DNA of 64,000 nt, from positions 96,001 through 160,000 of the forward strand of contig CAVSMN010000010.1 of NCBI GenBank assembly GCA_963729045.1. The letters run 5' to 3'. Source of the stretch: an uncultured Nitrososphaeraceae archaeon (GTDB taxonomy: Archaea > Thermoproteota > Nitrososphaeria > Nitrososphaerales > Nitrososphaeraceae). The notes beneath the pieces were generated by a model. That model ran no database searches and was not told the DNA's origin. It saw nothing but the letters and a program-made list of their open reading frames with translations. Numbering within the stretch: position 1 is the stretch's first letter; each line of letters begins with the position of its first letter. The translations under genes were made by a program, and so were the position numbers. Of this stretch, positions 23,656-62,472 are shown piece by piece.

Positions 23656-23684
23656 AAAAGTGCAAAGTACAGGATTTGAAGCCG
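23656..23684 (-). repeat. tRNA 3'-end (T-arm/acceptor) repeat, degenerate copy
   Basis: + strand aaaagtgcaaagtacaggatttgaagccg. Confidence 0.75.
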
Positions 23685-23864
23685 ATCCTTCCTGCAGTAT
23701 TCGTTATCTAATTAAGTATTTCTTTAAGAAGGTGTATATTCTTGATATGGTAGTATTTGATTCTAGAGTATTAAACAAAATGATCTGAAACCACATAGAT
23801 ATATCCATTTGGTCTAGAACCATCTAAATTGTTGATTTTAGTAAAAAAAGATGGAATAAATTAT

Positions 23865-24281
23865 TTACTTGCAGTGACCTTTTGACCAGCCAACACTGTA
23901 TCCTTTAGCATAATCCCCTGATCCTGGAGAATATCCCCAGCAGTGATTATGATCCCACCAGCCCTGTTGGCATCCTTTTATCCAATTCTGAGACTTTCCA
24001 GAGTATTCTGTGCAATAATGGGGTGAGCTTTTGCATTCTCCTTTATTCCATCCAACTTTGTATCCCTTGGCTACCTCGCCGGTCCCTGGGTTGTAACTTT
24101 TGCAATGGTCATGATCATACCAACCTTGTTTACATCCTTCTACCCATGCGTTTGACTTTCCTATTTCATCTGCACAATAATGTGAAGCAGCATCTACAGA
24201 TTTATTGACGACCAATGATGGAGCGACGGCGATTGATATTGCAACAAGTGCTATTGCGAGTATCTTTATATTAGTATCCAT
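23865..24281 (-). CDS. Secreted Cys/Trp/His-rich protein with two tandem ~52-aa repeats
   Basis: Signal peptide (likely start MDTNIK). Repeat SHYC...W..GC.QGW.DH.HC..Y.PG.G..AKGY.VGW.KG.CK occurs twice. Confidence 0.8.
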   Translation of the reverse strand: MDTNIKILAIALVAISIAVAPSLVVNKSVDAASHYCADEIGKSNAWVEGCKQGWYDHDHCKSYNPGTGEVAKGYKVGWNKGECKSSPHYCTEYSGKSQNWIKGCQQGWWDHNHCWGYSPGSGDYAKGYSVGWSKGHCK

Positions 24282-24491
24282 TAAATTGTTCATATAATTT
24301 GGGCATATAAAAGCATTTTTGGGTCCTTTTGAATTATACATGTCATCTGATGTTACTCCAATTCTCAAAGATGTTGTAAATATGATAGAGTATGGAAGTC
24401 CACAAGGTTATGAATATCATTTAGATTATCAGCAATTGTTTGGATCCAATATGTGGTAAGAATAGAAAAAGTCCAATAAATAAAGAAAATT

Positions 24492-24545
24492 ATAGTATTG
24501 ATTTTTCCTCTGGATCAACAAGGATGAACCCTTTATTTGAACCCG
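24492..24545. repeat. Type-B element fused to the tRNA T-loop
   Basis: atagtattgatttttcctctggatcaacaaggatgaaccctttatttgaacccg; matches the copies at 34277, 53086 and 60273. Confidence 0.75.
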
Positions 24546-24629
24546 ATTCTTTTTTATTCATATCAAATGAACAATGACTATTGCCTTGTATTATTTCATG
24601 AATCATTAAATCTTAATTTTGGAAATTAT

Positions 24630-25090
24630 TGACAATTCTTAAATAATTCATTTGGCTAGAGTTAAAATACAATCAATAAAACAAATTCTGGTAGCATTCT
24701 AACTCTCATAATAGTAGCAATAGTAGTAGCGATTATGTCGACAATGATCATCACAAGTCCGATGAAAATTGCTAACGTAGATACGCAAAATATGGATACT
24801 TATAGTCACACTCTATATGGTAATAATGTAGTATGATACTGTTTAATTGACCTTGATACTGCGAAAAAGTGGTATAGTACATATTGAAATAATAATACTA
24901 ACCTACCAAGTGCGTACATACCGACTTCGGAAGAAAATACCGATGGCTGAGATAACACTAATCCAAAGGACGGTGGAGGAGTACAAGTAACCTACATTTA
25001 GAGCAATTCGTGTGGCTCAAAAGGAGGTGTTGATTCGGACAAAATCAATAGCGGTGCAATTTTTGATTAAAAAGAATATCGCAAAAACAT
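24630..25090 (+). pseudogene. Decayed paralog of the secreted-protein cassette at 48340-48890
   Basis: Shares upstream sequence and the 3' end gattc.(g/a)acaaaatcaatagcggtgca...aagaatatcgca. Confidence 0.65.
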
Positions 25091-25138
25091 TGGAATAAAC
25101 AACATTTTTTTATTTTAATAATCTAAAAAATATAAAGA

Positions 25139-25154
25139 GCGGGATTTGAGCCCC
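25139..25154 (-). repeat. tRNA T-arm repeat, short copy
   Basis: gcgggatttgagcccc. Confidence 0.6.
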
Positions 25155-25161
25155 GTAAATG

Positions 25162-25509
25162 TCATAAATTCCTTATCTTGTCAATTAGATCTAGTGAATT
25201 AGATCCAACATCAGTAGTGATATAGAGCAAGTGACTCTCGTCAAATGGCATGGTTATACGCTTTATCTTTTCGTACTCCGCTAGAACATATTTTCCTTTT
25301 CCTATCTTTGAAGCCAATTTACTTCGTGTTTTCCATGCGTTAATGGCCAACTGCAAGGATTCCTGACTCTCTTCTTTTGATAATAAATTTGTAGTTCCGG
25401 GATTATGCTCCGAATACAGGATCTTTTCATCCTTTGTATCAAATATTGTTACAAACCTTATTGCAGAATCCATACCCAATATCCTTTTTCCTAGTTCATT
25501 GTATTCCAA
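25162..25509 (-). CDS. Conserved thaumarchaeal protein (DUF6659-like)
   Basis: IRFVTI, IGKGKYVLAEYEKIKRITMP pattern. Confidence 0.7.
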   Translation of the reverse strand: MEYNELGKRILGMDSAIRFVTIFDTKDEKILYSEHNPGTTNLLSKEESQESLQLAINAWKTRSKLASKIGKGKYVLAEYEKIKRITMPFDESHLLYITTDVGSNSLDLIDKIRNL

Positions 25510-25760
25510 TAGTACAACTTTGTATCATACTTTTTTATAAACATTCTCTAAATAATATATATTTTTAATTAATAACATCTAAAATAAGTATTATTTGTAA
25601 ATTTCATATAAATATTTGTAAAAATAATAATATGATTGAAAATACATTACTAATTCATTTTTTATTTCGATTTAATTGCAATTTATTGAATCTAGTAATA
25701 AAGTAAAATTTCAACACCAAAATCATACATAATTAAGAAAAATCAAATCATAAACTAAAG

Positions 25761-25800
25761 ATGCAAAGGTGTTGGATTTGAACCCGCGATCCCTTAAGAT
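25761..25800 (-). repeat. tRNA 3' fragment extending into the putative variable arm
   Basis: atgcaaaggtgttggatttgaacccgcgatcccttaag; reverse complement ...gggatc-gcgggttcaaat. Confidence 0.7.
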
Positions 25801-26624
25801 CTCTTTGACTAGATAATCGATCAACACCTTGCGATTAGACATTCAAGATATGCATTACCAATAAGTAGTAAGTAGTAATATACAATTTTGTTCAAAGTCA
25901 TATGCTAAAGGAAGCTGAAGACAATACATCTCATCTCTACGGTAACTGACAATATGATAATCTCCCCTTATGATCACGAGTTATCATATGTTGATTTTGT
26001 ACTGAAATTATTAAAAGTAAAAGATATCTTGATATTATTGACCGTTACAGATCAGAGTTGGTGCTGAAATCCACACACCATTGAGTCCATCCTGTTGAAA
26101 AGGGAAGTGTGGAAAGAGTTACGGGCAATTGACATTAAGCAATAACGCGACTATAGAAGGAGCAATAGAATTCCAGATCAAAGAATCAAGCTACATTGAG
26201 GAAATCATGTTTGAATTTGTTATAGAATATTCTCATACTCGATATAGAATATATGACTCCACTTTAAGCTTCTAGAGAATATCACATGCAATTGCTTATA
26301 CTATTCGATTAGCAGCGGAATGACTGGACAAGTTAGACTATTTGAGATATAATTGCACTGGAAATATGAAACTAATCCTGAGATTTTTATATAACGAATT
26401 ATAGTAACAAAGTTATGAAAATGAATGCCAAGATGATCTCCTCGCATTTTATATCCTATATTATGAGCGCTAATGATTAGGACATCATAAAGAATAAGTT
26501 ACTATGGTAAGAATCTAAAAGTATGAGACATTTAGTTATCATTATCTATACCCCAAATGAAACAAAGATAAATGAACAAAATAAAGTAAAAAGTATATAC
26601 GAAACTTATTCTTTAATGCTATGC

Positions 26625-26780
26625 ATGGCAAAAATGATCAGTTGCCCATGTGGTTGGACACTTATATCTCCCCAAGGAAATGACGATATAAAAAAGCACA
26701 TACAAATACATGCTAAGGATCATCATCCTGGCTTAACCGAGACAGAGGATGAAGTTGAAAAGATGATTAAAACAGTTTAA
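26625..26780 (+). CDS. Small metal-binding protein (DUF1059-like)
   Basis: MAKMISCPCGWTL...HAKDHH. Confidence 0.7.
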   Translation: MAKMISCPCGWTLISPQGNDDIKKHIQIHAKDHHPGLTETEDEVEKMIKTV

Positions 26781-26845
26781 TGTTTAGCCAATGATGGACC
26801 GTGGATAGTATTATGACATCAAATTGCCTTCACGAACTGCAAATT

Positions 26846-27787
26846 TTATCTAGATTTTGACTCAGTCATGATTTTCTGATCTATCAAGTCGTCCATCCAA
26901 TTTTGCCTTTTCGGTTCGACAATTTCTTTAAATATAAAAAGGGAGCAAGATCTAACACCTTCTAGTTTCAATACGTTTACATATGCTTCTTCAGGCTCTG
27001 CAAGAGTAAAAGCAAAAAGATTAGCAAGCAAGATCTTCTCTGCTATGGTTCGTACAGACCAAAGCTTATCTGCATATATTTCCCTTAAATGCTTGATAAT
27101 TTTGTATCGGCTTGCTGCATCGACTGACAACTCCAGTTCATAAAATATTAAACCTTGTTGTTTCTGGCTATTTATTATTGCTCGTACTATTAACATATCC
27201 GAACCCAAGAGTTTTGTAATCCTATATCGAACCATCCTCGGAGTAATTGATAATGAGTCAGAGATCTCGTTGATTCCGGATAGTGCATTATATCGAAGCT
27301 TTTGAATAAGTTTCCAGTCTAACTTGTCCGGAATGATTAGTGGTTTTTTTATTGCACAACTTCCAAGCCTCCACTTAAATAATTCAAATCTATTGGCTAT
27401 TTCTATGGCTACTTGATCTATCTCCTCAGAGGAACCGCCTGTGATACTAATAGATACTATATTCCCTAGATAGTCAACTATATCGACAATAAATGGAAGT
27501 CCATGAGCATATTTTATAACTCCGTGTTTGGTGGCAATATTTAACGCTTCGAATCGATAGGTATTAATATTTTTGAATTCAAAGAAGCCCAGCCTGGGCA
27601 TAGCCTGATAGTATTTTATAAATCCGTCATTTTCCATTTTCTTTACTCTTGATCGAACTGTCTTCTCATCTAATCCAAGCTTCCTTCCAATCGCTGAAGG
27701 ACTAACTCTCCTATCTGTAAACGAGTCATAATCGATTCCTTTGAATGCTATTTCGCAGAAGATCCATACGTCTTTGGCATCCATCAA
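26846..27787 (-). CDS. Duplicated Lrp/AsnC-type winged-helix regulator
   Basis: Two HTHs (IGRKLGLDEKTVRSRVKKM; ISDSLSITPRMVRYRITKL), each followed by a ferredoxin-like region. Confidence 0.8.
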   Translation of the reverse strand: MMDAKDVWIFCEIAFKGIDYDSFTDRRVSPSAIGRKLGLDEKTVRSRVKKMENDGFIKYYQAMPRLGFFEFKNINTYRFEALNIATKHGVIKYAHGLPFIVDIVDYLGNIVSISITGGSSEEIDQVAIEIANRFELFKWRLGSCAIKKPLIIPDKLDWKLIQKLRYNALSGINEISDSLSITPRMVRYRITKLLGSDMLIVRAIINSQKQQGLIFYELELSVDAASRYKIIKHLREIYADKLWSVRTIAEKILLANLFAFTLAEPEEAYVNVLKLEGVRSCSLFIFKEIVEPKRQNWMDDLIDQKIMTESKSR

Positions 27788-28058
27788 TTTTCCCTGAACT
27801 ACCTGGCTAAAAAATTTAAATAAAAATTGTTATCCATGATTGATGCATTGGCGATAGACGCAATGTCTATCAATTAATATGTAAAATACGGGTGTCAAGC
27901 TCCCGGCATTTATTTACCAATCTTGCACCTTGTATCTATATAATGAAACAAGAAACAATATCATCGGTACCCTTTCAATTGGAGATGGTCGAATCTCTTA
28001 AAAGGGCACCTAAGTATCACACAAGGTTCTGTTAATTATACAGGAGAAGTGGAAACAA

Positions 28059-29117
28059 ATGGTAGTAAATGAAATAAAGTTGCAGGAATTCATTGGAAGG
28101 ATCATAAATGACTGGGGAGCTGCAGAAGGAGCTTTGATCACTTTTGTTGGCGACAGGCTTGGATTGTTTAAAGCTATGGCGGGAGAAGGTGAACTGGCAC
28201 CTGAAGAACTAGCAAAGAAGACAAACACACATCCACGAATGATTAGAGAATGGCTAGCCAGTCAAGCTGCTGGAGGTTATGTCATTTACAACAGTAACAC
28301 CAGGAAATTCTTTTTGCCCGAAGAACATGCACTGGCACTGACTGATGAAAATAGTCCTGCATATGTCTCTGGATTTTACCAATCAATAGTAAGTCTTTTC
28401 AAAGATGAGGAAAAAATTATAGAGGCATTCAAGACTGGAAAAGGTCTAGGATGGGGGGATCATCATCATTACTTGTTTGAAGGAACTGAAAGGTTTTTCA
28501 AACCTAATTACATAGCGAATCTAACACAAAAATGGATTCCAGCTCTTGATGATGTCGAAATCAAGCTAAAAAATAGAAAATGCAAGATAGCGGATGTGGG
28601 ATGTGGTCATGGAGCATCAACAATCATGATGGCAAAAGCATATCCAAATTCAAGTGTTATAGGATTTGATTCACATAAGCCATCTATTGAATGGGCCAAA
28701 AAGCGGGCAGTAGAAGAGGGTATAATGAACATTACATTTGAAGTGGCAAAATCATCAGATTATCCAGGAGACGATTATGATTTGGTTACCTTCTTTGACT
28801 GCTTCCACGACATGGGTGATCCATTAGGTGCAGCCAAACATGTTTGTCAAACCTTAAAGAAAAAGGCAGGCACATGGATGCTAGTAGAACCATTTGCCAA
28901 TAATCAATTAGAGGATAATCTAAATCCTCTTGGAAGGGTGTTTTATTCGGCATCTTCTCTGATTTGCGTTCCGGCATCTTTGAACGAAAATGGACCGGCA
29001 TTGGGAGCTCAAGCGGGTGAACAAAAAACAATGGAGATAATGAAAACGGCAGGATTCTCAAAGATCCGTTGTGCTACTCAAACACCATTCAACTTGGTCC
29101 TAGAGGCACGACCATAA
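28059..29117 (+). CDS. SAM-dependent methyltransferase with N-terminal wHTH (Rv2258c-like)
   Basis: GDRLGLFKAM, REWLASQAAGGY, ADVGCGHG, FDCFHDMGDP, TPFNLVLEARP. Confidence 0.9.
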   Translation: MVVNEIKLQEFIGRIINDWGAAEGALITFVGDRLGLFKAMAGEGELAPEELAKKTNTHPRMIREWLASQAAGGYVIYNSNTRKFFLPEEHALALTDENSPAYVSGFYQSIVSLFKDEEKIIEAFKTGKGLGWGDHHHYLFEGTERFFKPNYIANLTQKWIPALDDVEIKLKNRKCKIADVGCGHGASTIMMAKAYPNSSVIGFDSHKPSIEWAKKRAVEEGIMNITFEVAKSSDYPGDDYDLVTFFDCFHDMGDPLGAAKHVCQTLKKKAGTWMLVEPFANNQLEDNLNPLGRVFYSASSLICVPASLNENGPALGAQAGEQKTMEIMKTAGFSKIRCATQTPFNLVLEARP

Positions 29118-29944
29118 TCCACCTATTCCTTTCAATATTTGGAGAGTAATAGGACAATCAACCAAGAAGGGGTATTGATAATGACGATCGGAAAATAGCC
29201 TAGGATAAATTGATCTTTCTTCGAGAGCAACAGTGATGAACCTCTCTATTGGAATCCGCAATCTGTGACTAGAAAGAACCTTATATGAATAACGTTCCAG
29301 ATTTAGATTCCAAATCATCAAAAGGTTTTATGAAATATCTGGAGTTTCGAAAGATTGAACCAAAGACAATTAATAAAACTATTTAGAAATACTCTAAAAT
29401 ATCATATCATATATTTTATGAAAGAAATGGAGTTGAACTTACTACTTATTACATCCAATCTAGCAAATATCGATTCAAAAGTTCTGAATAGATGCACCAT
29501 AGCAAATATTTTTGAATTCATGTTAGAGTAGACTCATCCCAGGGTTAAACCACTACCAAGTCTTAAAGTTGAGACAAACAAAACAATGTAGTTTTCTATT
29601 GTGGAGAGATTCTTTAAGTTTAAATTCTGTATTGCATTTGTCACAAATCAATTATATTGCCAATTAAAAACAATTATCAACAATATTAATCTTATTAATA
29701 ATGTGACTGATTAATCAAGTAGTCAAATAAGAAATAATCGTCAAATATGTAGTCAAGAGATGAAAATGACAGGAATGGTACTATTACATCATTTTTAAAA
29801 TCTATAATTGTTTATGCTGTGGATTCACTTCACCATCGTCATAACAGTTAAAAGTGATTATATGGGGTTTCTGGTTTATTTCTAACCTCTTTAAGTAGTT
29901 TCTTAATACTATAGAGCTGTTGTTTTAATTAAGTACTATATATT

Positions 29945-30133
29945 TTAGGAGCCAACCAATCGCTTACCGCAATAAGGACAAAACATTAAAGGTGCGCTGG
30001 CAATATTGCCTTCAAACATTAGATAGTAAACTCCTTTATGATCTCCTGAATACTTAAAAATCTCTGTATCATGTCTAATGCATTCACTTTCATATTCTTC
30101 TTTAAATTTCTCACAACAAAATTCTCTAGTCAT
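29945..30133 (-). CDS. Small zinc-ribbon protein
   Basis: MTREFCCEKF...FCPYCGKRL. Confidence 0.6.
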   Translation of the reverse strand: MTREFCCEKFKEEYESECIRHDTEIFKYSGDHKGVYYLMFEGNIASAPLMFCPYCGKRLVGS

Positions 30134-31643: not shown

Positions 31644-31695
31644 ATTTACTAATAGCAACCCGATGGACAAACAGATTATCAGAGGGGAACAAATT

Positions 31696-31797
31696 GGTTC
31701 AAATCCCATAGCATATTTTCAAATTCTTTATGTAAGTTTATTAAGTGAGATGTGGGGAATTTGAATCCCCAATGCTTGTCGCCTCAGGATTCTAAGC
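31696..31797. repeat. Inverted T-loop copy plus degenerate tRNA 3' half
   Basis: ggttcaaatccca at 31696; gtgagatgtggggaatttgaatcccc at 31745. The reverse complement includes an anticodon-like loop cttagaa. Confidence 0.55.
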
Positions 31798-32690: not shown

Positions 32691-32719
32691 AAAAATGCAA
32701 AGTGTTGGATTTGAACCCG
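32691..32719 (-). repeat. tRNA 3'-end repeat
   Basis: aaaaatgcaaagtgttggatttgaacccg. Confidence 0.75.
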
Positions 32720-33116
32720 TCATGTCGTGATTCTGTTATGCGGCCATATATCCCTTCAAAATATCGTTTACTTTTGAATATCGGTTTTCTGATTCTTGTA
32801 TTTACAGATAAAGGAGCAACAGAAGCAGCATTTTACCTTTAATGCCAATCATTCAAATCAGATAATGAGTTTTAGATTTCAACCATTCATCAAGTGTAAG
32901 AATATTTTCGTACAAAATTGTTACGGTTACAAAACATTTTGAATAAAATTTTCCATAACAAGTTTGGCATATGATAATTTGAGTTCCAGTAAACAAGTTG
33001 CTTTTAGTAGACAATTATCAAGACGCTTAGAACAATAGGTATTCAAGTCATCTATAATAAAGACATGTTCCTACCTTGAAATTTTTATTTAAATAAGATT
33101 AATTAATATAAAATAC

Positions 33117-33684: not shown

Positions 33685-33711
33685 AAAAGTGCTTAATGCA
33701 GGATTCGAACC
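33685..33711 (-). repeat. tRNA 3'-end repeat, degenerate
   Basis: aaaagtgcttaatgcaggattcgaacc. Confidence 0.65.
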
Positions 33712-33763
33712 AGACTCCTAATATAGATTAGCCGGGCTTTTTATCATACCAAACGAAATAGAC

Positions 33764-39596: not shown

Positions 39597-39625
39597 GAAA
39601 AGTGCAAAGTGCGGGATTGAACCCG
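39597..39625 (-). repeat. tRNA 3'-end repeat
   Basis: gaaaagtgcaaagtgcgggattgaacccg. Confidence 0.85.
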
Positions 39626-39633
39626 TCATTTTG

Positions 39634-44657: not shown

Positions 44658-45340
44658 TTAAGAATTAGGGTAGAAAAGAAGAAAAGGTAAAGCAATATTT
44701 AACATTTCTATAGGCGGCACATCTGTGAAATAACAACTACACAGTATTACCAATCCTATTTGTTTGTCTGGATTGAATCCGACAAATGAACTATAACCGT
44801 CTATACCTCCATTATGCCAAATTACCTGATTTCCTAAATCAGTTGTGCTAAACCACGACAATCCGATATATCCATAGTGGAACGATTCAAATCCTGAAGG
44901 ATCATCAAATGGAACTTGTACTTCAGTAAACGGATGTCTAATCAAGTGACTTGTCTCCATTGCGTTATTGAGCTTTGTATCCATCAATCCCATGTTAGCT
45001 GAGACATACTTTAGTAAATCATTAACTGTTGAGTACATCGCACCTGCACCTTGTACTTTTTGAGGGAGAAATATTAATTCACTTTCATTTCCTACCATGT
45101 GGCCTTTTGCAAATTTAGATACAATATTCTCAGAGTACTGATATACTTGTTGCATTCATTGCAAATCCTGTACTATTCATTCCTAATACATTCCCTATTC
45201 TATCCTTAAGCAGTTGATCCAGGGGAATACCTGTTAATGACAGGACATGTCCTACCAGACCCAATCCTATATTTGAATAAGCAGATTTAGTTCCTGGTTC
45301 AGTTGCTAGTGTTGAATTCGAAAGAAAATCATAAGATTTC
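44658..45340 (-). pseudogene. Serine hydrolase (beta-lactamase class C-like), 5'-truncated and frameshifted
   Basis: GAGAMYSTVNDL and WHNGGIDGYSS. The upstream frame has PGTKSAYSNIGLGL and LGMNST; no SxxK region is seen. Confidence 0.75.
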
Positions 45341-48206: not shown

Positions 48207-48247
48207 TCAAATCCCGCTTGAAAAGTGCAAAGTGCGGGATTTGAACC
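48207..48247. repeat. Composite inverted T-arm repeat (type C)
   Basis: tcaaatcccgc-ttgaaaagtgcaaagt-gcgggatttgaacc. Confidence 0.85.
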
Positions 48248-48379
48248 ATAGTCTTTTGGCATCCTTTTATAACAAATGATTAAAAATCATTATCATGTAT
48301 TAATTCACAAATTAATTCACAAATTATAAGAATCTTGGAATCTTACAAATTGTTGAAAATTCTCAAATAATTCAATTGC

Positions 48380-48865
48380 CATGACTTAAAATACGACTAA
48401 CAAAATAAAATTCAAAATGCAGTGCTCCCTATGACATTATTACCACTGATTTCAATGATAAATTTAAGCACTATGACTATAGGTAATGTAGATGCACGAA
48501 AAATGGATACTGCTACATGTACCAGTAATAATGATGGAACCGTCGGTACGGTAACTTGTTGAGCATTAGATCAGGACACTATGGTTCAATGGTGTACTAC
48601 CTGTGTTAATACTAAACCCCCTAGTAACTGTTCAGAAGCAGAACAGCAATTTCATACCAAGGGTGGCGAAAATGCGAATCCAAACAATGGTGGGGTACTA
48701 AGTAGCGACGACTCAAGCAATCAAGGCGGCTCAAATACTGTTGATCCAGACAAGATTATTGATGGAGGAACATTCAATGATGATGGCGGTTCAAGCAATT
48801 CGGGTGACTCAAATGGAGGGATTGATTCGAACAAAATCAATAGCGGTGCAGTATTTAATCAATAA
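48380..48865 (+). pseudogene. Secreted Cys-containing, G/N/S-rich protein, disrupted 5' end
   Basis: ORF 48581-48865 with upstream in-frame stops; paralog remnant at 24630-25090. Confidence 0.55.
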
Positions 48866-48920
48866 GAATATCGCAGGAATCATATATAAATAACGTTATC
48901 TTATTTTACTTATCTATGAA

Positions 48921-48938
48921 GGTGCGGGATTTGAACCG
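48921..48938 (-). repeat. tRNA T-arm repeat
   Basis: ggtgcgggatttgaaccg. Confidence 0.8.
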
Positions 48939-49104
48939 TATATTGTATCAGACAAACACTAGTCAATTATTGACAATATCATGAAATACTTAATTACAGG
49001 CCATTAGAAGGGTTCTAATGAATAAAGTTTGGGTTATGCATCTAGCCTATTGAAAACTGAAAAACAAAATTAAGACAAATAAGATATACTTGCTTTAGAA
49101 TCAA

Positions 49105-50771: not shown

Positions 50772-50925
50772 TAAATGGAGTTTTATTTCGCTTTTTATCA
50801 GACAGGACAATGTATTGTCATAAACCTTCGTTCTTTAGCAATAACCTATTAAAATGAATTGAATGGCATAAAAACATGCTACTAAGAAAATTATATTGTC
50901 AATAAACAGTTAATTTGAGCATAAT

Positions 50926-51019
50926 AAAGTGCGAAGTGCGGGATTTGAACCCGTTTCTATGACATGATTAGCCAAGGTTTAATTTACTATAGTTAATAAC
51001 AATAAGGAACGGGTTCAAA
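50926..51019. repeat. tRNA 3'-end repeat with downstream inverted T-loop copy
   Basis: aaagtgcgaagtgcgggatttgaacccgtt at 50926; aacgggttcaaa at 51008. Confidence 0.85.
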
Positions 51020-53233: not shown

Positions 53234-53340
53234 TTCAAATCCCGCTTGAAAAGTGCGAAGTGCGGGATTTGAACCCGCTTCTTCTTTTGTCCAGTTCAAA
53301 TCCCTTTGTTCAGTGAGGGAGAAAGAGAACCCGCAATCCC
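53234..53340. repeat. Composite inverted T-arm repeat (type C) plus two further fragments
   Basis: ttcaaatcccgcttgaaaagtgcgaagtgcgggatttgaacccgctt; gttcaaatccc at 53294; gaacccgcaatccc at 53327. Confidence 0.88.
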
Positions 53341-53558
53341 TCTATCTTTAGTTGTTGGTTATAGAGTAGGGATAATTTGACCAAGATAATCTTCTTACAA
53401 GATTACACCCTCTTTATATACTTCCTTGAGTGAATTTGGTTATGAATAATAATAGACAGGTAAGAAAAGAATTATCTTTTCCATTATAGTATTCATTTCT
53501 ATACTCTAATTTTCTCAAGTATGACCATGAATCTAATGGTGCTTTACTAATATAGTGG

Positions 53559-54482
53559 ATGGGATCAAACAAATTTACCCAGACCAATTCAAGCAATACC
53601 ACGAATTTGGTAAATACCCAAGACATTCCATTAGAAAAAGTCCATGTTGGAGATATTGAAATGGCGTATAAAATGTTTGGTAAAGGAGATCCCTTGATAC
53701 TTCACAATGGTGCTTCTGATAATATGGATGCATGGGATCCAGCCCTTTTAAGCAGACTAGCGTCAAATAACACAGTAATTGTGTTTGATAGTCGTGGAAT
53801 AGGAAATACTACTGCAGGTACCGAACCGTATTCTATTCAGTTACTTGGTAATGATACTGCGGGTTTAATGGACGCTTTGAAAATACAACAAGCAAACGTT
53901 CTTGGATATTCTCTAGGTACATTTACAACCCAACAATTTGCAATTACGCATCCTGATAAGGTTAGTAGTATTATACTTATTGCTGGAACCTGTGGTGGGA
54001 AAGATGGTATACCTAAACCGACTGAGTTTATGAAATCGATGTCCGAAATGGCAAATAAGTCTTCAAACAATGAATCCATGACTCAGGAGGATTTCAAATC
54101 CCTTGTAACTGCCTCATTAGGATCGGGATGGGTAAAACTGCATCCTGAATCTGCTGATATTCCAGAAAATATGACATTAGCAGCAGCAAAGCCTGGTCTT
54201 TCTCCTGAAGCAATGAACAATCAGATGAACGCTGGATTTGCTTGGGAGGCAACCAACTGGAATGGTGTTTGTGACAACCTTGCGAAAATAGACAAGCCCC
54301 TGTTAGTTATAACAGGAACAGACGACAATGAATATGTCCCACATGAAAACTCTTTAGTCATTGCAAACAAGGTTCCAGGAGCATGGCTTGTACAGATAAA
54401 GGATGCTGGTCATGCAGTTCCGGATCAATATCCTGATGAAGTCGGTAACATAATAGAAACATTTTTGTCGACTGTAAAATAG
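53559..54482 (+). CDS. Alpha/beta hydrolase
   Basis: FDSRGIG, GYSLG, GTDD, DAGH. Confidence 0.88.
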   Translation: MGSNKFTQTNSSNTTNLVNTQDIPLEKVHVGDIEMAYKMFGKGDPLILHNGASDNMDAWDPALLSRLASNNTVIVFDSRGIGNTTAGTEPYSIQLLGNDTAGLMDALKIQQANVLGYSLGTFTTQQFAITHPDKVSSIILIAGTCGGKDGIPKPTEFMKSMSEMANKSSNNESMTQEDFKSLVTASLGSGWVKLHPESADIPENMTLAAAKPGLSPEAMNNQMNAGFAWEATNWNGVCDNLAKIDKPLLVITGTDDNEYVPHENSLVIANKVPGAWLVQIKDAGHAVPDQYPDEVGNIIETFLSTVK

Positions 54483-54530
54483 TAGGAGACTAATCAGGAA
54501 AGAAGAATTAGATATTAATTTCGTACGCGA

Positions 54531-54599
54531 TGTAGACAAGCGGGTTCAAATCCTTATCTGAAGAAAGGAGAAGAAGTGCGAGGTGCGGGATTTGAACCC
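54531..54599. repeat. Composite inverted T-arm repeat (type D)
   Basis: tgtagacaagcgggttcaaatcc...gtgcgaggtgcgggatttgaaccc. Confidence 0.88.
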
Positions 54600-54822
54600 T
54601 AAGTGATTATTATGATCTTGTTTTCACAAAAATTGAAACCAAATAGATGAAAAATTCTGCCATTCTGATTCTTAGATTTGCTATCATTCTTCCTGTATCA
54701 TTTGTTAAATTAATTGCATGTAATCCATTTAGATTGGATTATCTATGCTCAATTCGAGTGGGATTAATATCGATTCCAGTACAGGTCTTAACAAAAAGGG
54801 GTAATTTTTTGGATATTTTCCT

Positions 54823-56376
54823 TTAGGTTTGGAAATTGCACTGAGCTCTCGTATCTACACTTCCTCGATTTATTAAATCATTTATTGTTTTTCTTGAGAA
54901 ATCAAAGGCCTTCCCATTAATGTCATCGCTACTCTCTAGAGATTGACCCTCTCCATATCCTATTCTTTGTAGTTTGTTTATTGTTACTCTTCCCTCAATT
55001 AGTTTTCTTATTTCTCTTGGATTGCCACTTCTACTCATGCTAACTAACTTGTTTGCTAATGGTTTTTCCAACTCTCTATAGATAGAGTCGTTTGATGAAT
55101 AATTGCGGTCTGACCTAATCATGTCCATTAAAGAATTTATTATGTTAATATAATCAGATACCATTGATGTTACCTTTTCATCATGCTTTGATTTATCATG
55201 AAATAACACATTCTGGACCCGGTTATTGATAGAATCCGGGTCCTCAGGGACTCCCTGTTCTTTGGTGGGGTACAAAATACCTATATACACCTCTAAGGAT
55301 GGAACATTATCTAAGCCTTTAACCTTATACCAATAGTCCCTGTGTGATTGAATAACTTCTCTTAAAGGCGTATTACTAAGGTAATAACCATCCATAAATA
55401 TTCTATTATACTGTTTTCCTTCCGGAATTTTATCATCAATGACTTCACCTGTAATAGCTGGCAGTTCTGGGAATTTGTATCTTAGATGAGAAGACATGGT
55501 GGTTAGGAGATGCTCCATCTTTATTCCATCCGGATATTTTATTACATGCTTTGATTTACTATCCTCATCGCCATATACGGACATTCTTTGGTTGTACTTC
55601 TTTGGATAGCTATCAAATGTTATGGTTGTTGCATCTTGTACATCTACGCCTACCAATAACAATCTTGGTTCCCCTTCATCGGTCTTTATTGGATTTTTTG
55701 AATCATCCCAAAACTTTCGAATTGTTTCTACAATAGGTGAATTATCAAACCGTAGTATGTAATTAAAAGGATTTAGAAATCTAAAATCCGGTTGGTATAT
55801 CGGAGGAGACAGAACCTTATGAGTTCCCCAAGGAAGATAAGCAAATTGATACCATGACCAATATCTTCTGAATGCCTCACCTGAGGCTAATCTACCCAAT
55901 TTATCTGGCCACAAATAATAGTAAGACAACAATGGTGATTGTTCCCTCATAGTGCCAAATATGTTATCAAAGGGCTTTAGGGTATTAACCCAAAAGTTGT
56001 TGACTCCTTCTCTTAGCTTGGATGAGGCGTATAGCCAGCCTTGCAGAAATGGATTTTCATATTGAGGTGTGTCTATTGATACCTCTTGCCAAAATCGATA
56101 AAGGGTCTCGTCTGACCCCTTCCAAGGATTTTCCTCTTCCTTATTTTGTAGAACGTGATTGACTATCAGGGTTGCGTTTATTGCACCTGCGGAGGTACCA
56201 GCAACGATATCAAATAAGGGTCTTTTTTCATTTATTTCCCACTTAAGACCTTCATACAGTGACTTATAAATTCCGGCCTCGTAGGCTCCCAATGCCCCTC
56301 CTCCTTGGAATACAAGAGCTCTTTGTTGTAGCGGTCCGGAATTGCTATGTTTACTGTCTGTTGGAAAATTTGACAT
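54823..56376 (-). CDS. Patatin-like phospholipase
   Basis: GGGALGAYEAG, GTSAG, DGY.LSNTP, FDFS. Confidence 0.9.
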   Translation of the reverse strand: MSNFPTDSKHSNSGPLQQRALVFQGGGALGAYEAGIYKSLYEGLKWEINEKRPLFDIVAGTSAGAINATLIVNHVLQNKEEENPWKGSDETLYRFWQEVSIDTPQYENPFLQGWLYASSKLREGVNNFWVNTLKPFDNIFGTMREQSPLLSYYYLWPDKLGRLASGEAFRRYWSWYQFAYLPWGTHKVLSPPIYQPDFRFLNPFNYILRFDNSPIVETIRKFWDDSKNPIKTDEGEPRLLLVGVDVQDATTITFDSYPKKYNQRMSVYGDEDSKSKHVIKYPDGIKMEHLLTTMSSHLRYKFPELPAITGEVIDDKIPEGKQYNRIFMDGYYLSNTPLREVIQSHRDYWYKVKGLDNVPSLEVYIGILYPTKEQGVPEDPDSINNRVQNVLFHDKSKHDEKVTSMVSDYINIINSLMDMIRSDRNYSSNDSIYRELEKPLANKLVSMSRSGNPREIRKLIEGRVTINKLQRIGYGEGQSLESSDDINGKAFDFSRKTINDLINRGSVDTRAQCNFQT

Positions 56377-56461
56377 ACCCTACAAAGAAGGATCCTAAAA
56401 ATAAAGGTTTTGGTAATAAATTACAATGATCTTCACTTAAATAAAAATCCACCATGAGGTG

Positions 56462-56948
56462 TTATATCAAATACTTTTTTGATAACCGGTGCCTATTCCT
56501 ACTTAATGTATTTGGTTGCAATTGATTGTTATTTTGAAGTTTCAGATCTTGTGAAGATTCGGTGCTTGTCCCCTGAGAGTCAGTCGTTGTTGTTTGAGTA
56601 GGGACGGGACATCCCTCTGGTATATCATCAGATTGATCCTCCAGAACAGGACATAATCCGGGACAACCATTTTCATCAATAAAACTAGTCCCTTCAATTC
56701 GTTTCATTTGAACAAGCATTGTTTTGCTCGGATTGGGTATCAGATGATTGATCATTATTATCAGTCAACTCTTCGTCAGTATTACTATCTTGTGATTGAT
56801 CCTCCTTGGATATATCATCACTGTTGTTTGAAGTGGTTGCAAAAACCGATGAAAAAGTCATGAATTGAGAAGGGATTACTAAAGTTGGTTTAAGAAAAAT
56901 AAGAGTCGTACAGATAAGAACAGAAAAATGCTGGGTTTTAAGACACAA
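56462..56948 (-). pseudogene. Secreted low-complexity protein split by a frameshift
   Basis: Signal-bearing ORF 56694-56948 continues in ORF 56462-56755. Confidence 0.5.
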
Positions 56949-57379
56949 GAATTACCAAAAGATTTTCTCAAAGGTGAATTTTTCAACGTATGTGCAATAC
57001 AGATGATATTATTAAAGATATTGCAATAGTTGTATCAAATTCTTCAATCTTACAATTATTTTGTAAGTCATTGTAAAATTAAGCAATAAATGATAAACAA
57101 TATCGATATATTATTAGCCTCTCCAAAGCATTGATCTTAGACGATAGGTTTCTCATACTACTTAAACTTCTATAGGAGCGATATATAAGAAAAACCTCCC
57201 TTGAAATTTTATGATTAGTTAATTGTAGTTTTCAATTTTGGTATTCATGTAGAACTGTGCTTGTTAAATGGATCAGCCTGTTCCTATAACTCAACTCCAC
57301 AAAACGGACAATGATTATATCATAATTATAAAGTTTGGATCCTTTCTCAATTCTATGGATCCATCATGCTCTACCATCT

Positions 57380-59040
57380 CTATCCAGCCTTATTTAATGG
57401 CAAAGTAAAGGTAAATGTTGCTCCTGTATCATCCTTGTTATTTTCTGCCCATAAGTCTCCATCGTGTGCCACAACAATCTTTTTTGAGATATACAATCCC
57501 AAACCCATACCTTGATACGAGTTAGTGGTAAACGTGGTAAATAATTTCTGAAAAATCTCTTTATCAATCCCGACACCTGCATCCTTTACTTTCAAAATAA
57601 CCATTTCCTTACTGCTTGCATTATGCATATTGATTACCTTACTTTCAGCTTTTATTGATATTGAAACCAAGTCGGAGGAAAACTTTATTGAATTACTAAT
57701 CAAATTAGAAATAACTTGGCTTATCCTACTTTTATCTCCAAAAACGACCAAAGTATCAGGGATTTCATATGTGATTTTTATATTTTTATTATCAGTACAA
57801 TTTTGATAATCTCTTATCATATCTGGTATTATTTCCTTAAATGTAAAATTTTCTTTAATGAGCGTAAGAGAATTACTTTCAATTTTTGCTACGTCTAAGA
57901 TATCTTCGGATAGTTTCTTTAATCTTTTTGCATTTCTGTTTAAGATATCGAGAAATTCCCTAAGTTCATGATCTTTTATTCTACTTTTAACGAAGTCCGA
58001 TACATTAATTATTGGCTGTATTGGTGTTCTTAATTCATGGGCGGCTACATTAATGAATTCCTTTTGCATCCTGTCATTGACTTGTAATTGTTCATACAAC
58101 TCTATTTGTTTCCAAATAACGTCGAATATTGCAGCATATGTTAATACAGTGGGTAAACTATTAGAATAAGTTGCAAACCCTATTGCTTCTGCAACTGTAT
58201 GCTTGGCATCATCCCTTAGCTCTGCAACTATCGAATACCTTCTATCAACCACCAAAATTGATACTTGAGATATTGGATCCATAAATCTAAAATGAATATT
58301 TAGATTGTTGGCTAGACCTTTACATGTTGCTTCTATTTCATTATCCTTAGGTATCAGCACTTTCATTTTTACATTGGGGTTAGAATCTGTTATTTCTTTA
58401 AGAATTCGTATAGATCCATTGTGCTCTAGTCTGTGAAAAGCATTAGCGGTAGAGAAGATAATTAAAATCTCCTCTTTTGTAGACCTCAAAAGATCAACGA
58501 GTTTGTTTTGTAAGACCACAGGGTCATTTATAGATTCAATGACTTCAGGAATTATACCCTCCTCGATTTCCTTTATTTTTTTCTCACCTGGAACTGCGTG
58601 TTCTCCATAAGGTATCAAAGATATATTGACCCTGTTCAATCACTTCTTTTACATTGCTATAGATAACTTGGGTAAGAGGAGTACTTTTCTTGAAGAACTG
58701 TGGTAGCCATATATTCTGACTCGCTGACGGCAACACCACCTCTAACGCCATCTAGATGCCGCAGTTCATCAACAAGATTTATCAGATCTTTACAGTTACC
58801 GACATTTTCTTTTGTAATCTCTGTAAATGCCCTTATCTTCCCTCCCCTGTTACGAATATTTAGATATCCATCTCTATATTCTTTAATCTCTACTACAATT
58901 GATGGAGCATTTTTGTCAAAATATATATCCATCTTTTCTTTGACGTTTTCCATAAAATATATTCCCCTCCCCACCGCTTTCTCGACGCCATAAAGAATCT
59001 CTGAGCTTTTATCCTTGGTTTGAGGGAAGGAAGGAATACC
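57380..59040 (-). CDS. Sensor histidine kinase with TrmB/PLD-like N-terminal domains, frameshifted near 58600-58680
   Basis: AAHELRTP, QVISNLISNSIKF, DAGVG and GMGLGLYI. The N-terminal part lies in ORF 58657-58974 (ELRHLDG). Confidence 0.85.
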
Positions 59041-59218
59041 CGTAATGTTTCATCTAAATATCATGTTTAAAATATAAAAATATGCCGCTGCAAACACTTT
59101 AGTACGAAACTGTCATAGTTCATTAATTCTCCTTTTTTCAAGTAACTTTTAATTAAAGAAGTTGCTTTGAGACATTTAGGCATAAATTTTTAATAAAATG
59201 GGCTTTTAATACAATATA

Positions 59219-60200
59219 GTGGATGATTTAACATTTAGACAATTGATGGAATCAAAATATTATCATCCAGAGGTTACAGATGTCATTTTTGATTCCGATA
59301 AAATGTTAGAAATGGGCATAGTTGCTATTAATAGTACTGAAAGAGGATTTGTTATAGTATGGGATAAAATAATGCTTGATTCCTTGTGGAAGTTTTATAA
59401 AGTTGGTATACTCCTTGCTGAAAAACATGCCAAAGAAAGGGGTATCAAATTTAGACTAATTGTTGAAATTACGAAAGAAAACATGGAGTCTGTTAAATCA
59501 TTCAAGTATTATGAAATAAAACATATTGATAATATAAGAAGTAACTTTGCTGTATTGGATAACAGGGCCTATATGGTGCAAATATTTCATAAGGAAAATG
59601 AGCCTCCTGCTCAGGCGTTATTTAGTAATACTAAAGCCCTAGTAGATAGTCAACAAGCACTATTTAACAGATTATGGGAAATTGCAACTCCAATAGCAAA
59701 CAGATTAAAAGAGATAGAATATCGTGATAAATTAAACTACCAGAGGATTTTAACAAATCATAAAGAAATTCATAATGAAATAGATTCTTTAACATAACAA
59801 TGTGAAAAAGAATTACTAATATTTTCGTCATTCAAATTAATTTATACTGTACTTAACAAGAATAACTTTGTAAATAATTTTAACTCATTGCTAAGAAAAG
59901 GTATTACAATTAAGATTCTCACCGACGATATTGATGAACATTTAATGAGTCATATTGCTCAAATAAAGGACAACAAATAAAGATAATCCGATGCAGTTTG
60001 GGTATAGCAACAAGTTGGGAGAATTTAATGAATTTATAATGTTAAGCGATAATAAGTATGTCTTGCAAATAAAATATGACCAACAAAATGAAATAGTTGC
60101 CTCATTTTCAAATGAAGAGCATAATGTAATGATTCAAGAGATTCTATTTGAAAAATATTGGAATGAAGTCAAGAGTCTTACAGTCATTAGCAATAATTAG
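59219..60200 (+). pseudogene. TrmB/PLD-like double-domain protein with two in-frame stops; paralog of 61065-62045
   Basis: Same frame continues past TAA at 59795 and 59978; collinear with the 326-aa paralog. Confidence 0.8.
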
Positions 60201-60272
60201 ATAGTTTTAGATTCAATAATTGAAGGTCATTAAAACAAGGATTGATAAAATGTTGAACGCAATGATGCGCTA

Positions 60273-60323
60273 ATAGTATTGATCTTTGCGCGGGATCAAG
60301 GACGAACCGCATTATTTGAACCC
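60273..60323. repeat. Type-B element fused to the T-loop
   Basis: atagtattgatctttgcgcgggatcaaggacgaaccgcattatttgaaccc. Confidence 0.8.
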
Positions 60324-60488
60324 ACTAACAATTATTAAATGACAATCTCGATGCTCTCAACATTAACCCTCTAATGTAATAGTAAGGTCATTGGACTAGA
60401 TAAGATGTGGATTTGCACAGAAACCTTTGAAAGACAATATAAAAATGATTTAAGGTAAATTAAATTCATATTAGATTTTGATGGTGTT

Positions 60489-60755
60489 CTAATTTAATAA
60501 TCCACCTAATAAGCCGGTTGCTTTTTCTGTTAGAGATGAGTCAGACGAGGTAGAATCATTTGTTGTTGATACTGAACTATTATTCGTTCTTTGACTATTA
60601 TCATTTCCTGTCAGTAACTTTGTTGCCTCATCTTTAAGAGTGGACAAATCCTGCGCTAATGCCGTCTGGCCTAATGAATTACTTACTAGCGATGCTGTCA
60701 ATACAAATGACAGAACAAAACTCGCGATTACTAAAATTTTCTTCATCTTTTTCAA
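60489..60755 (-). CDS. Small secreted protein
   Basis: Signal peptide and S/T/N-rich linker. Confidence 0.7.
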   Translation of the reverse strand: MKKMKKILVIASFVLSFVLTASLVSNSLGQTALAQDLSTLKDEATKLLTGNDNSQRTNNSSVSTTNDSTSSDSSLTEKATGLLGGLLN

Positions 60756-60921
60756 ATTGTATGTTCATCATATTATATAACAGATACAACATTGAGTAAG
60801 TTATAAACAGTATTTCATCCAGATATCAGAGTGGGAAGTTTTACAATACCAATAATAAATTTACCATTTTCAATTAGCGTGAGACCGAATGATTAGAAAA
60901 CAGAAACCATGTAGACAGATT

Positions 60922-60991
60922 TGTAGATAAGCGGGTTCAAATCTATCTTAAGAAAAGAAGAATGAGGTGCGAGATGCGGGATTTGAACCCG
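60922..60991. repeat. Composite inverted T-arm repeat (type D)
   Basis: tgtagataagcgggttcaaatc...gtgcgagatgcgggatttgaacccg. Confidence 0.88.
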
Positions 60992-61064
60992 AGTTAAGAG
61001 TTGTCAAGGATAAGAGACATGTCTAGGACAACTTTTTAATAAAATGGAGTTTTGATACAATACA

Positions 61065-62045
61065 GTGGATGATATAACATTTCGACAATTGAAAGAATCT
61101 GGCTATCATCATCCCGAGGTTACAGAAGTAATTTTTGATGCCAACCAAATGTTTGAAATGTCATTGCACTCGGTCAGTATTAGTGAAAAAGGCTACGATA
61201 TAGTATGGGACAAGGTTATGATAGATTTTCTGAGAAAATATTTCAAAGAGGGCCTGCAACTCCTTGAAGATTTGGCCAATAAAAGAGGATTAAGAAGAAG
61301 ATTAATTGCAGAGACTACCGCAGATAATATTGAATTTGTAAATTCACTAAGTTATTCTGAAATAAGACACCTTGATAATCTCAGAGGAAATTTTGGAATA
61401 TTTGATGAAAGGGCATATATTGTCCAAATTTTTCACAAGGATACAGAAAAACCAAATCAAGCATTTTGGAGTAATTCCATTACACTTGTAAGAAAACAAC
61501 AAGCCCTGTTCGACGATTTATGGAAAATGGCTATCCCATTGTCGGCCAGAAATAAAGAGTTAACGTATCATGTAAATCCAGAATATAGGAAAACTTTTAC
61601 TGATTATGATCACATATATCAAGAGGTAAAATCAATCCTTGAACAAAGTAGAAGGGAATTATTAATATTTGCATCTTTTAAAATTTTGAAGAGAATATTT
61701 CACAATAAGGATTGGATCAATACTATCGCTTCACTGCTAGCAAGAAGAGTGAATACTAGAATATTGACAGATGATATTGATGGAGATTCAGCAAGAAAAA
61801 TTATGCGGATCCAAAATGAAGATAAGGACAAAAGAATCCATTTTGGATATAATGACAAATTAGGAAATTTCAATGAACTGGTTATATTAAGTGATGAGAA
61901 GTATGCTTTGCAAATAAAGTATGACCATCAAAATAAACTAATAGCATCATTCACTAATGAAGAATCCAGTGTTATGATTCAAGAGATATTATTTGAGAAA
62001 TGCTGGAACGAAGTAAAGAGTCTCGAAGTTGTGAATAGCAATTAG
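61065..62045 (+). CDS. Kinase-less TrmB/PLD-like sensor-domain protein
   Basis: EIRHLDNLRGNFGIFD, QQALFDDLW and ILFEKCW; same domain type as the histidine kinase N-terminus. Confidence 0.75.
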   Translation: MDDITFRQLKESGYHHPEVTEVIFDANQMFEMSLHSVSISEKGYDIVWDKVMIDFLRKYFKEGLQLLEDLANKRGLRRRLIAETTADNIEFVNSLSYSEIRHLDNLRGNFGIFDERAYIVQIFHKDTEKPNQAFWSNSITLVRKQQALFDDLWKMAIPLSARNKELTYHVNPEYRKTFTDYDHIYQEVKSILEQSRRELLIFASFKILKRIFHNKDWINTIASLLARRVNTRILTDDIDGDSARKIMRIQNEDKDKRIHFGYNDKLGNFNELVILSDEKYALQIKYDHQNKLIASFTNEESSVMIQEILFEKCWNEVKSLEVVNSN

Positions 62046-62409
62046 ATTAATTACTATGAGGATAAAAATTTCAACATTATATAAATGAAAAATAAAGTCG
62101 ACTGGTCCAATAATATTGAATAAATTTAGAGTGGCTTTACAAATTCTTACTAATACTCAATCTAGTTTTTGCCTTTACTATCAGGAGAACAATCGCCGCT
62201 TTCTACGAGCCTTGTGATTTCTCGTTTTTATCGGCATTTTCTTCAGCATCTTTCAAGTTGTTTATCAATCTTTTGTCTGCCTTGGTGTCATTGCTTGTCC
62301 TTTTCCAAAACTTTCCTAATTTTCTAAATAGCACAGAGTCTTTCAACTAATTCTACATGTATACTATAGATGAATTTGCTTATAAAGAAAATAACGTCAT
62401 AAAAACAAG

Positions 62410-62472
62410 TGCGAGATGCAGGATTTGAACCCGCACTTCGCTCGTACCTTAACCAGGCTGGGCCAACCTCGC
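62410..62472 (-). tRNA. tRNA-Leu-like gene lacking anticodon and variable arms (pseudo-tRNA)
   Basis: Reverse complement GCGAGGT-TG-GCCCAGCCTGGTTAAGGT-ACGAGCGAAGT-GCGGG-TTCAAAT-CCTGC-ATCTCGC-A: 7-bp acceptor stem, D-arm, T-arm and discriminator A. Leu identity is inferred. Confidence 0.75.

Follow-up and report, generated by a model that had tools for sequence, protein, structure and literature searches.

Repeats at the locus

We analysed a 64,000-nucleotide (nt) stretch of contig CAVSMN010000010.1 from an uncultured Nitrososphaeraceae archaeon (the window), which between 23.1 and 62.4 kb carries an array of short repeats interspersed with genes. There are 14-16 copies across 39 kb, and every full copy lies on the minus strand. 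The repeat corresponds to the last 24-30 nt of tRNA-Gly(CCC), comprising the T-arm, the 3' strand of the acceptor stem and a CTTTT trailer, and we refer to its occurrences as attachment-site (att) copies. The consensus of the shared unit is (C)GGG-TTCAAAT-CCCGC-ACYTYGC-A-CTTTT. In alignments, the copies agree over the final 2-5 nt of the 5' T-stem, the T-loop, the 3' T-stem, the acceptor strand, the discriminator and the CTTTT trailer; agreement fades within the 5' T-stem and right past the trailer. The flanks are not conserved among copies, except for subfamilies of the adjoining arms described below, and the common sequence is just 24-30 nt.

A 16-nt T-arm pattern with up to two mismatches matched the window 10 times, always on the minus strand (10/10), and had no match in each of 100 shuffles. 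As an independent probe we used a 24-mer from the intact tRNA-Gly(CCC) of a relative (locus L031; loci of relatives carry L numbers throughout), allowing at most seven mismatches. It gave 14 minus-strand matches, against 0.125 per mononucleotide shuffle (n=200), at 62409, 60967, 60300, 54576, 53253, 50929, 48915, 48225, 39602, 33689, 32695, 31745, 25130 and 23660. A third search used R1, a sequence-only covariance model built from 13 window copies, which match it by construction. Over the whole window and with filters off, R1 found one additional copy at 23123-23147 (minus strand, E=0.005). It detected no full-length copy on the plus strand, and left of 23.1 kb it had no significant match. Flank catalogues compiled with regular expressions undercount the window copies (non-overlapping matching) and were used for flank comparison only.

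A first-pass annotation, made from the letters alone, had listed at least 14 co-oriented, strictly intergenic copies of a tRNA 3' end. The count is borne out: the 24-mer recovers 13 of those 14 positions and adds the site at 60300, while the remaining one, at 25761, has a 1-nt insertion and was found by the 16-nt pattern and by R1 (24.3 bits). The copy at 31745 is weak, with five mismatches, a different T-stem and an R1 E value of 2.8. All copies are intergenic relative to open reading frames (ORFs) supported by Pfam; the copy at 23656-23685 overlaps one unsupported ORF of 70 amino acids (aa). A CRISPR-like array (clustered regularly interspaced short palindromic repeats) was considered and rejected in view of the irregular spacing, with intervals of 0.5-8.6 kb.

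The pseudo-tRNA

The copy nearest to the tRNA, at 62405-62434, forms the 3' part of a pseudo-tRNA-Gly(CCC) at 62410-62472 on the minus strand, identified by Rfam (tRNA, 35.6 bits) and by alignment to nine intact tRNA-Gly(CCC) of relatives. It retains the 5' half, the T-arm and the acceptor strand, and 17 nt covering the anticodon loop, the 3' anticodon stem and the variable region are swapped for GAAGT; in the Rfam alignment, 13 model positions are replaced by 2 nt. ARAGORN reported zero tRNAs over the window because this anticodon arm is missing, and elsewhere in the window an Rfam scan by E value gave only sub-threshold snoRNA-like noise.

The GAAGT replacement makes a 12-bp near-palindrome around the T-loop, and its mirror arm, in the copy at 62410, is the source of the only plus-strand match of the 24-mer. 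The junction (62405-62443) reads GCGAAGTGCGGG / TTCAAAT / CCTGCATCTCGC, a near-perfect 12-bp inverted repeat in which the left arm reverse-complements the canonical CCCGCACTTCGC exactly and the right arm is a variant. This suggests either a template-switch "palindrome correction" or an inverted att-att event, with the right arm exchanged later. An inverted GCGAAGTGCGG also occurs 37-39 nt upstream of att in L037, L101 and L118.

Next to the pseudo-tRNA, at 62523-62813 (minus strand), tblastn revealed residues 120-216 of a truncated 216-aa gene, which across Nitrososphaeraceae is the conserved 5' neighbour of tRNA-Gly(CCC). Synteny with relatives stops at about 62815, where the blastn high-scoring segment pairs (HSPs) to L031, L079 and L052 all end. 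Locus L068 also has a tRNA remnant; it is damaged differently, the neighbour gene is reduced to residues 186-216 (L068:10737-10829), and co-oriented att copies lie on both sides. Since the 216-aa neighbour is truncated both in the window and in L068, these tRNA copies look like internal or relocated pseudo-loci. The window copy is probably such an internal (or relocated) pseudo-copy, and the true head of the array may lie beyond position 64000.

Site-by-site features and gene content

Moving away from the pseudo-tRNA, a copy at 60963-60992 differs from the canonical 24-mer at two positions and was detected by pattern, R1 and 24-mer, as were those at 54572-54601 (one mismatch), 50925-50954 (none), 32691-32720 (four) and 25126-25155 (six). 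Downstream of the first of these lies an arm remnant (60910-60943, minus strand) whose homologue in L118 is the beginning of the full arm; it consists of an inverted T-arm piece at 60932-60943 and two TGTCTACA-type motifs at 60910-60918 and 60922-60930. A degenerate copy at 60300-60325 (minus strand), with seven mismatches, has a well-preserved counterpart in L068 (9996-10023). The copy at 54572 adjoins a truncated arm (54531-54553, minus strand) made of an inverted T-arm piece (54541-54553) and one exact TTGTCTACA motif (54531-54539). Next comes the alpha/beta-hydrolase unit at 53279-54571 (plus strand; gene at 53559-54482, assigned by Pfam), with an att copy at each side. The copy on its far side, 53249-53278, has no mismatches and carries the inverted piece GCGGGATTTGA 8 nt downstream (53234-53245); the same piece stands at 48207-48217 beside the copy at 48221-48250, which has two mismatches.

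At 48911-48940 the acceptor part has diverged (R1, 24-mer), and at 39598-39626 the T-loop has a 1-nt deletion (alignment, R1). The copy at 33685-33714 has six mismatches (R1, 24-mer), and the weak T-arm-like copy at 31741-31770, found by the 24-mer, is of uncertain membership with its different stem. The 1-nt insertion in the copy at 25757-25787 (pattern, alignment, R1) falls in the acceptor part. The copy at 23656-23685 has four mismatches (R1, 24-mer), and the most distal one, at 23123-23147 (R1, 13.7 bits), is degenerate and absent from the first-pass annotation. With 60300 left out, the six proximal copies are 0-3/24 nt off canonical and the distal copies have 4-7 mismatches. An 82-nt arm with 87% identity is shared by 48794-48875, downstream of copy 48911, and 25002-25083, on the same side of copy 25126; both copies have a diverged acceptor part, and this constitutes a second arm family, with related sequence in L104, L101 and L038.

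Copies are spaced 0.5-8.6 kb apart. It had been claimed that many intervals hold just one gene. This applies to 6 or 7 of the 13 intervals; the others contain up to about eight ORFs, and four, of 5.9-8.6 kb, are multi-gene. ORFs of the array occur on both strands. No recombinase or transposase was found by Pfam among the 77 window ORFs of at least 70 aa, and tblastn of the window with two integrases from relatives, including a permissive search for remnants, returned only noise (best E 2.4), in agreement with the first-pass statement that no integrase is seen. The alpha/beta-hydrolase unit, measured with its flanking sites (53249-54601), likewise has att at both sides and no integrase of its own.

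Several further features accompany the array. Adjacent units at 59184-60202 and 61030-62047 contain paralogous genes of 192 and 326 aa, with 65-83% nucleotide identity in blocks; homologues exist in L075 (96% aa identity) and L031 (44-45%), and Pfam gives weak DUF matches only. A 165-aa ORF at 44658-45155, within the 8.6-kb interval, matches only the C-terminal third (profile positions 216-310) of a beta-lactamase/transpeptidase-like family and looks like a gene fragment. Just beyond the most distal att copy, at 22044-22118, is a short tandem repeat of four copies with a period of 17-18 nt. A multicopper oxidase at 7943-8996 appears as two overlapping ORFs (7943-8578 and 8505-8996), probably through a frameshift or sequencing error. 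Genes left of the last detectable att (12692-12904, 16616-16891, 23865-24368) have homologues in the island of Nitrosocosmicus sp. FF01 beyond attR (L037:11973-19528). The flexible region may therefore reach left of 23.1 kb, where att copies would have eroded.

Integrase-bearing elements in relatives

A scan with a degenerate 22-mer, one genome per species, yielded at least 122 matching stretches, nearly all in Nitrososphaeraceae. Flanks were retrieved for 80 loci among the matches listed, and counts per genome are lower bounds. ARAGORN found an intact tRNA-Gly(ccc) at the match in 11/20 loci examined, and these align to the window copy. The one tRNA of the first-pass annotation is tRNA-Gly(CCC), but the window itself holds a pseudo-copy with a truncated 5' neighbour gene; of the tRNA expected at attL, an intact version is seen in those 11 loci and not in the window, where the anticodon arm is missing. 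Counting window and loci together, the 5' part of the tRNA is attached in 74/142 copies and absent in 68/142.

The 22-mer has further matches in a few contigs of bacterial origin (Oscillospiraceae, Eubacteriales, Arcobacteraceae) and in one of Sysuiplasma (L001, L012, L093, L084), presumably unrelated tRNA 3' ends. Two loci, L052 and L075 (JACDCB01 contigs), come from a metagenome-assembled genome (MAG) labelled Nitrosopumilus sp. and carry sequence that is 92-98% identical to the Nitrosocosmicus-like window; the label or the binning of this MAG may be wrong.

Tyrosine integrases of the PF16795 family ("archaeal phage integrase") are encoded directly 3' of intact tRNA-Gly(CCC) in relatives. 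A tyrosine recombinase using the same site, which the first-pass annotation had proposed to seek outside the window, exists in these relatives. The integrase of L015 (10341-11495, 384 aa) matches PF16795 with E=1.9e-12 and 47.8 bits; its homologue in L041 (8754-9845, 363 aa) does so with E=2.4e-6 and 28 bits (cut-off 27). When PDB sequences were searched by phmmer with the L015 integrase, none matched at E values up to 0.01, so its family assignment comes from Pfam only. By tblastn, homologues occupy the same tRNA-adjacent position in L079, L053, L032, L109 and L056, the matches in the last three being cut by the end of the locus. An integrase adjoining attL is thus seen in seven loci; L068 has remnants only, and the window has none.

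In FF01 (L015/L037), the integrase starts about 320 nt past the tRNA and is followed by a PriX-like primase gene, and a KaiC-like ATPase gene is located close to the far att. The tRNA and a second att copy, located 25.6 kb downstream, have a perfect direct repeat of 33 nt in common, and the integrase and PriX-like primase genes lie between the two repeats, toward the tRNA end. In L041 the next att is 14.8 kb away and the same arm is repeated there. The integrase of the relatives belongs to ordinary integrative elements of 15-26 kb, adjoining attL, and is not a fixed platform gene.

Arrays and unit order across genomes

A profile scan of related Nitrososphaeraceae, as the first-pass annotation had suggested, found co-oriented arrays in five further contigs, with units of 1.3-2.4 kb. 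In L031 an intact tRNA is followed by copies at 11598, 13334, 15740 and 17073 (units of 1.3-2.4 kb, no integrase among the ORFs); L034 has five copies, L063 and L068 have four each, and L065/L041 has the tRNA plus three. In the five loci searched with filters off, all 19 hits at E<0.001 (19/19) are co-oriented within their own locus. Direct repeats of the tRNA 3' end, co-oriented and 3' of a tRNA copy, are a property of the window and its relatives alike, and the repeats are attachment-site copies of one tRNA, clustered 3' of its copy.

Units of the window recur in relatives in other orders, and homology between genomes repeatedly ends at repeats. The most widely shared is the alpha/beta-hydrolase unit (53249-54601), with two homologues each in L068, L034 and L031 and others in L007, L089 and L119. 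In L007 it stands right after an intact tRNA; L031, L034 and L068 each have it twice, at internal positions; and in the window it lies three att copies in from the pseudo-tRNA. An S9-type hydrolase gene and an ABM gene share one interval in the window, and L063 separates them by an extra unit and att copies at 8634 and 9996. At the L063 junction att1964, the flanks of window copies 39598 and 33685 are joined to each other. Window segment 60956-62442 is missing in L068; one end of this difference is the 3' edge of copy 60963, and the other falls inside the pseudo-tRNA, 9 nt from the core.

Arm motifs and element remnants

The arms of integrase-bearing or full elements, that is, the 100-150 nt past the att core, contain 4-5 iterated motifs of 8-12 nt that are lineage-specific: TTGTCTACA in L056, L090, L099 and L118, ATTATTAATAT in L015, TGTTTACA in L079, TTGTTGAC in L041 and L065, and GGTTAACC in L105. 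Probably the integrase, or else an accessory protein, binds these motifs as arm-type sites. The motifs often adjoin a GCTCGTA-like spacer.

Only the first one or two motifs of a TGTCTACA-type arm are present at window copies 60963 and 54572 and in the alpha/beta-hydrolase units of L007, L034, L068 and L119; the stub at 60963 combines the inverted T-arm piece with two motifs, that at 54572 the piece with one. L068 has two att copies with an integrase remnant close behind each of them, at most about 10 nt away: the final 30-40 codons of the gene, SAKHY segment included. The truncated arms and the C-terminal integrase remnants in L068 appear as footprints of deletions that removed the integrase end of an element, and several small units look like deletion derivatives of integrative elements, so purpose-built tiny cassettes are not needed. 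The proposal of tiny non-autonomous cassettes is accordingly retained in part: small att-flanked units lacking an integrase exist, but several resemble reduced elements.

Origin of the array

We consider it likely that the locus is a flexible genomic island: elements would have integrated one after another, site-specifically, at tRNA-Gly(CCC), after which mobility genes were lost and att copies recombined with each other. Integrative elements with a PF16795 tyrosine recombinase, whose attP would mimic the last 25-33 nt of the tRNA, would enter the 3' end of the tRNA gene by site-specific recombination. Each integration would rebuild the tRNA end and leave a co-oriented copy at the far end of the element, and repeated integrations would displace older elements away from the tRNA. 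Deletions would then strip the integrase and replication modules, located beside the tRNA-proximal att, and leave the cargo genes between att copies in place. Recombination between att copies, either site-specific or homologous, would delete, duplicate and reorder units.

The repeats are copies of the tRNA end, clustered and co-oriented; integrase-bearing elements with perfect direct repeats occupy the same site in relatives; and arm or integrase remnants lie beside att copies, at which blocks of homology end. For the window, the same history would mean that its own units arrived by serial integration, that an integrase was presumably lost through deletion, and that recombination between copies was probably mediated by an integrase.

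Several observations weigh against this history. The window contains neither an integrase nor an integrase remnant, so the origin of its units has to be read from the relatives; the closest locus compared is 96% identical over 692 nt, and the comparison rests on relatives rather than on the source genome. The 6 or 7 single-ORF units of 0.5-1.5 kb require very thorough decay or another origin. An age gradient, with mismatches rising with distance from the tRNA, is weak (rho=0.35, p=0.22, 14 copies), and reaches rho=0.57 (p=0.053) when the two weakest copies are omitted. The TTGTCTACA motif is not enriched window-wide (24 matches vs 19.6 expected); only the three window motifs adjoining att 54572 and att 60963 gain meaning from their context. 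Finally, of the 94 ends of 47 HSPs, 27 are no more than 10 nt away from an att copy, where uniform placement would predict 1.6; this test is biased and overstates the signal, as the loci were chosen for containing the repeat.

The best-surviving alternative, to which we assign a rather low probability, is an array that is integron-like in the strict functional sense: an integrase encoded elsewhere would excise non-autonomous cassettes, each made of one cargo gene, an att core and minimal arm sites, as circles and reinsert them at any att copy, giving an actively shuffled store. That units have an att copy at either end and turn up at different positions with different neighbours, as the alpha/beta-hydrolase unit does, fits such a store, and so do the four small units without integrase that follow the intact tRNA in L031, the truncated arm conserved next to the core, the near-canonical state of the six proximal copies and the recombinant junction in L063. 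Integrase remnants and truncated arms, however, point to decay of autonomous elements; the distal copies have decayed and so are not being kept up as sites; the genes face both ways, with four intervals multi-gene; and the window has no attC-like structure, attI or Pc. Besides, any DNA between two direct att copies can in principle be excised, which requires nothing specific to integrons.

A more particular form of this alternative is similarly improbable in our estimate. Nitrosocosmicus-type archaea would keep, anchored at tRNA-Gly(CCC), a store of minimal modules that PF16795 integrases of co-resident elements excise and reinsert singly. Each module would consist of a single cargo gene with the tRNA-derived core of 25-30 nt and an element-arm stub at its flanks. 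It is possible that a gene between two direct att copies can be excised and reinserted by an integrase acting in trans, and the recurrence of the same small unit at different positions appears compatible with such mobilisation. If true, such a store would parallel integron cassette shuffling in an archaeal, tRNA-based form, having arisen through the reduction of integrative elements; single mobilisation of small units would make it a cassette system evolved independently of integrons.

That the 30-nt repeat is itself mobile and spread between the genes of an ordinary chromosomal region, like a short interspersed element (SINE), a miniature inverted-repeat transposable element (MITE) or a repetitive extragenic palindrome (REP), is very unlikely. 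The copies are short and intergenic, and several have inverted T-arm pieces nearby that could form hairpins. Nevertheless, full copies share one orientation and one region instead of being dispersed in either orientation, the aligned flanks have no terminal inverted repeats or target-site duplications, gene order between copies varies among genomes with homology ending at copies, and the same sequence serves as att in canonical integrase elements. With a single orientation, a single cluster and none of these terminal features, the repeat was rejected as a MITE- or REP-like element.

We give hardly any credence to the view that the copies are kept mainly as transcription terminators or insulators (T-arm hairpin plus T-run) duplicated with genes by segmental duplication: although every copy ends in CTTTT, some form longer inverted repeats with neighbouring pieces (about 53234-53276 and 48207-48248) and the array has a paralogous gene pair (59184-60202, 61030-62047), this view leaves unexplained why the copies match the 3' end of a single tRNA, why they keep one orientation irrespective of the strand of the genes, and why integrase elements occupy that site in relatives. 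As att includes the terminator of the tRNA itself, a terminator role could be incidental.

If the array is an accretion island, as we favour, it offers a concrete route of gene gain in soil and skin ammonia-oxidising archaea (Nitrosocosmicus), where this process is poorly understood. One tRNA gene would serve as a landing pad at which cargo piles up, including hydrolases, oxidoreductases, transporters and regulators. The locus defines an att core and an integrase family, both testable in vitro, and the repeat sequence can be used to find flexible islands in Nitrososphaeraceae MAGs.

Comparison with known systems

Integrons have an IntI-type tyrosine recombinase next to attI at the head of the array and a common promoter, Pc. 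Their cassettes are mostly promoterless, co-oriented single ORFs, and the attC sites are imperfect palindromes of about 60-140 nt. The window resembles them in its ordered, co-oriented sites between small gene units, in the involvement of a tyrosine recombinase and in a plausible gradient with older units farther from the head. In contrast to integrons, no IntI beside attI was found in the window (77 ORFs; tblastn best E=2.4), although the array head may lie outside it; the shared sequence is a 24-30-nt tRNA 3' end and not a structured attC; genes occur on both strands with their own expression signals, and four intervals are multi-gene; units show remnants of autonomous elements; and the integrase of relatives belongs to incoming elements. 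The first-pass comparison with an integron array is a loose analogy, and a functional analogue in the strict sense is improbable.

Another parallel is offered by cis-mobilizable elements (CIMEs), described in the accretion-mobilisation model for streptococci. These are flanked by att sites, have lost integrase and transfer genes, lie in tandem with autonomous elements at the 3' end of a tRNA or other gene, and are potentially mobilised by the integrase of a neighbour. Window units such as 53249-54601 are likewise flanked by att and have no integrase of their own; unlike CIMEs, they are much smaller, and conjugation is not implied.

The tycheposon islands of Prochlorococcus provide a bacterial counterpart. 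According to Hackl et al. (10.1101/2020.12.28.424599), they are adjacent to tRNA genes, successive integrations push older elements inward, and serial integration leaves scattered partial tRNAs and degenerate elements; the cargo consists of adaptive metabolic genes. The window shows the same combination of tRNA adjacency, partial tRNAs and degenerate elements. The likeness is drawn from island layout: tycheposons are bacterial, with different integrase and replication modules, and the tRNA copy in the window is degraded.

A further parallel is found in the thaumarchaeal "cryptic integrated elements" and archaeal tandem arrays. In Krupovic et al. (2019; PMC6563490), tRNA genes are the target of 39/68 thaumarchaeal integrated elements, which with a single exception insert at the 3' end; their att sites are short, and arrays produced by re-use of one site are known. 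The present locus is alike in apparent integration at a tRNA 3' end with short att direct repeats, in the re-use of one site and in cargo of metabolic and stress genes; in its relatives, though not in the window, an integrase also lies beside attL, a place where it stays intact after integration. The window differs in the density of its att copies (14-16 within 39 kb), in its many single-gene units and in lacking an integrase. The main text of that report mentions neither Nitrosocosmicus nor tRNA-Gly. Our literature search, with subscription journals and supplementary tables outside its scope, turned up no description of such an array for Nitrosocosmicus or tRNA-Gly(CCC); nothing on archaeal arrays of this kind was found among the papers listed on tRNA fragments and accretion, and the word "tRNA" is absent from PMC13245735, retrieved with the literature on Nitrosocosmicus, genomic islands and integrases. 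The kind of locus is already known: a tRNA-anchored accretion island with partial-tRNA scars.

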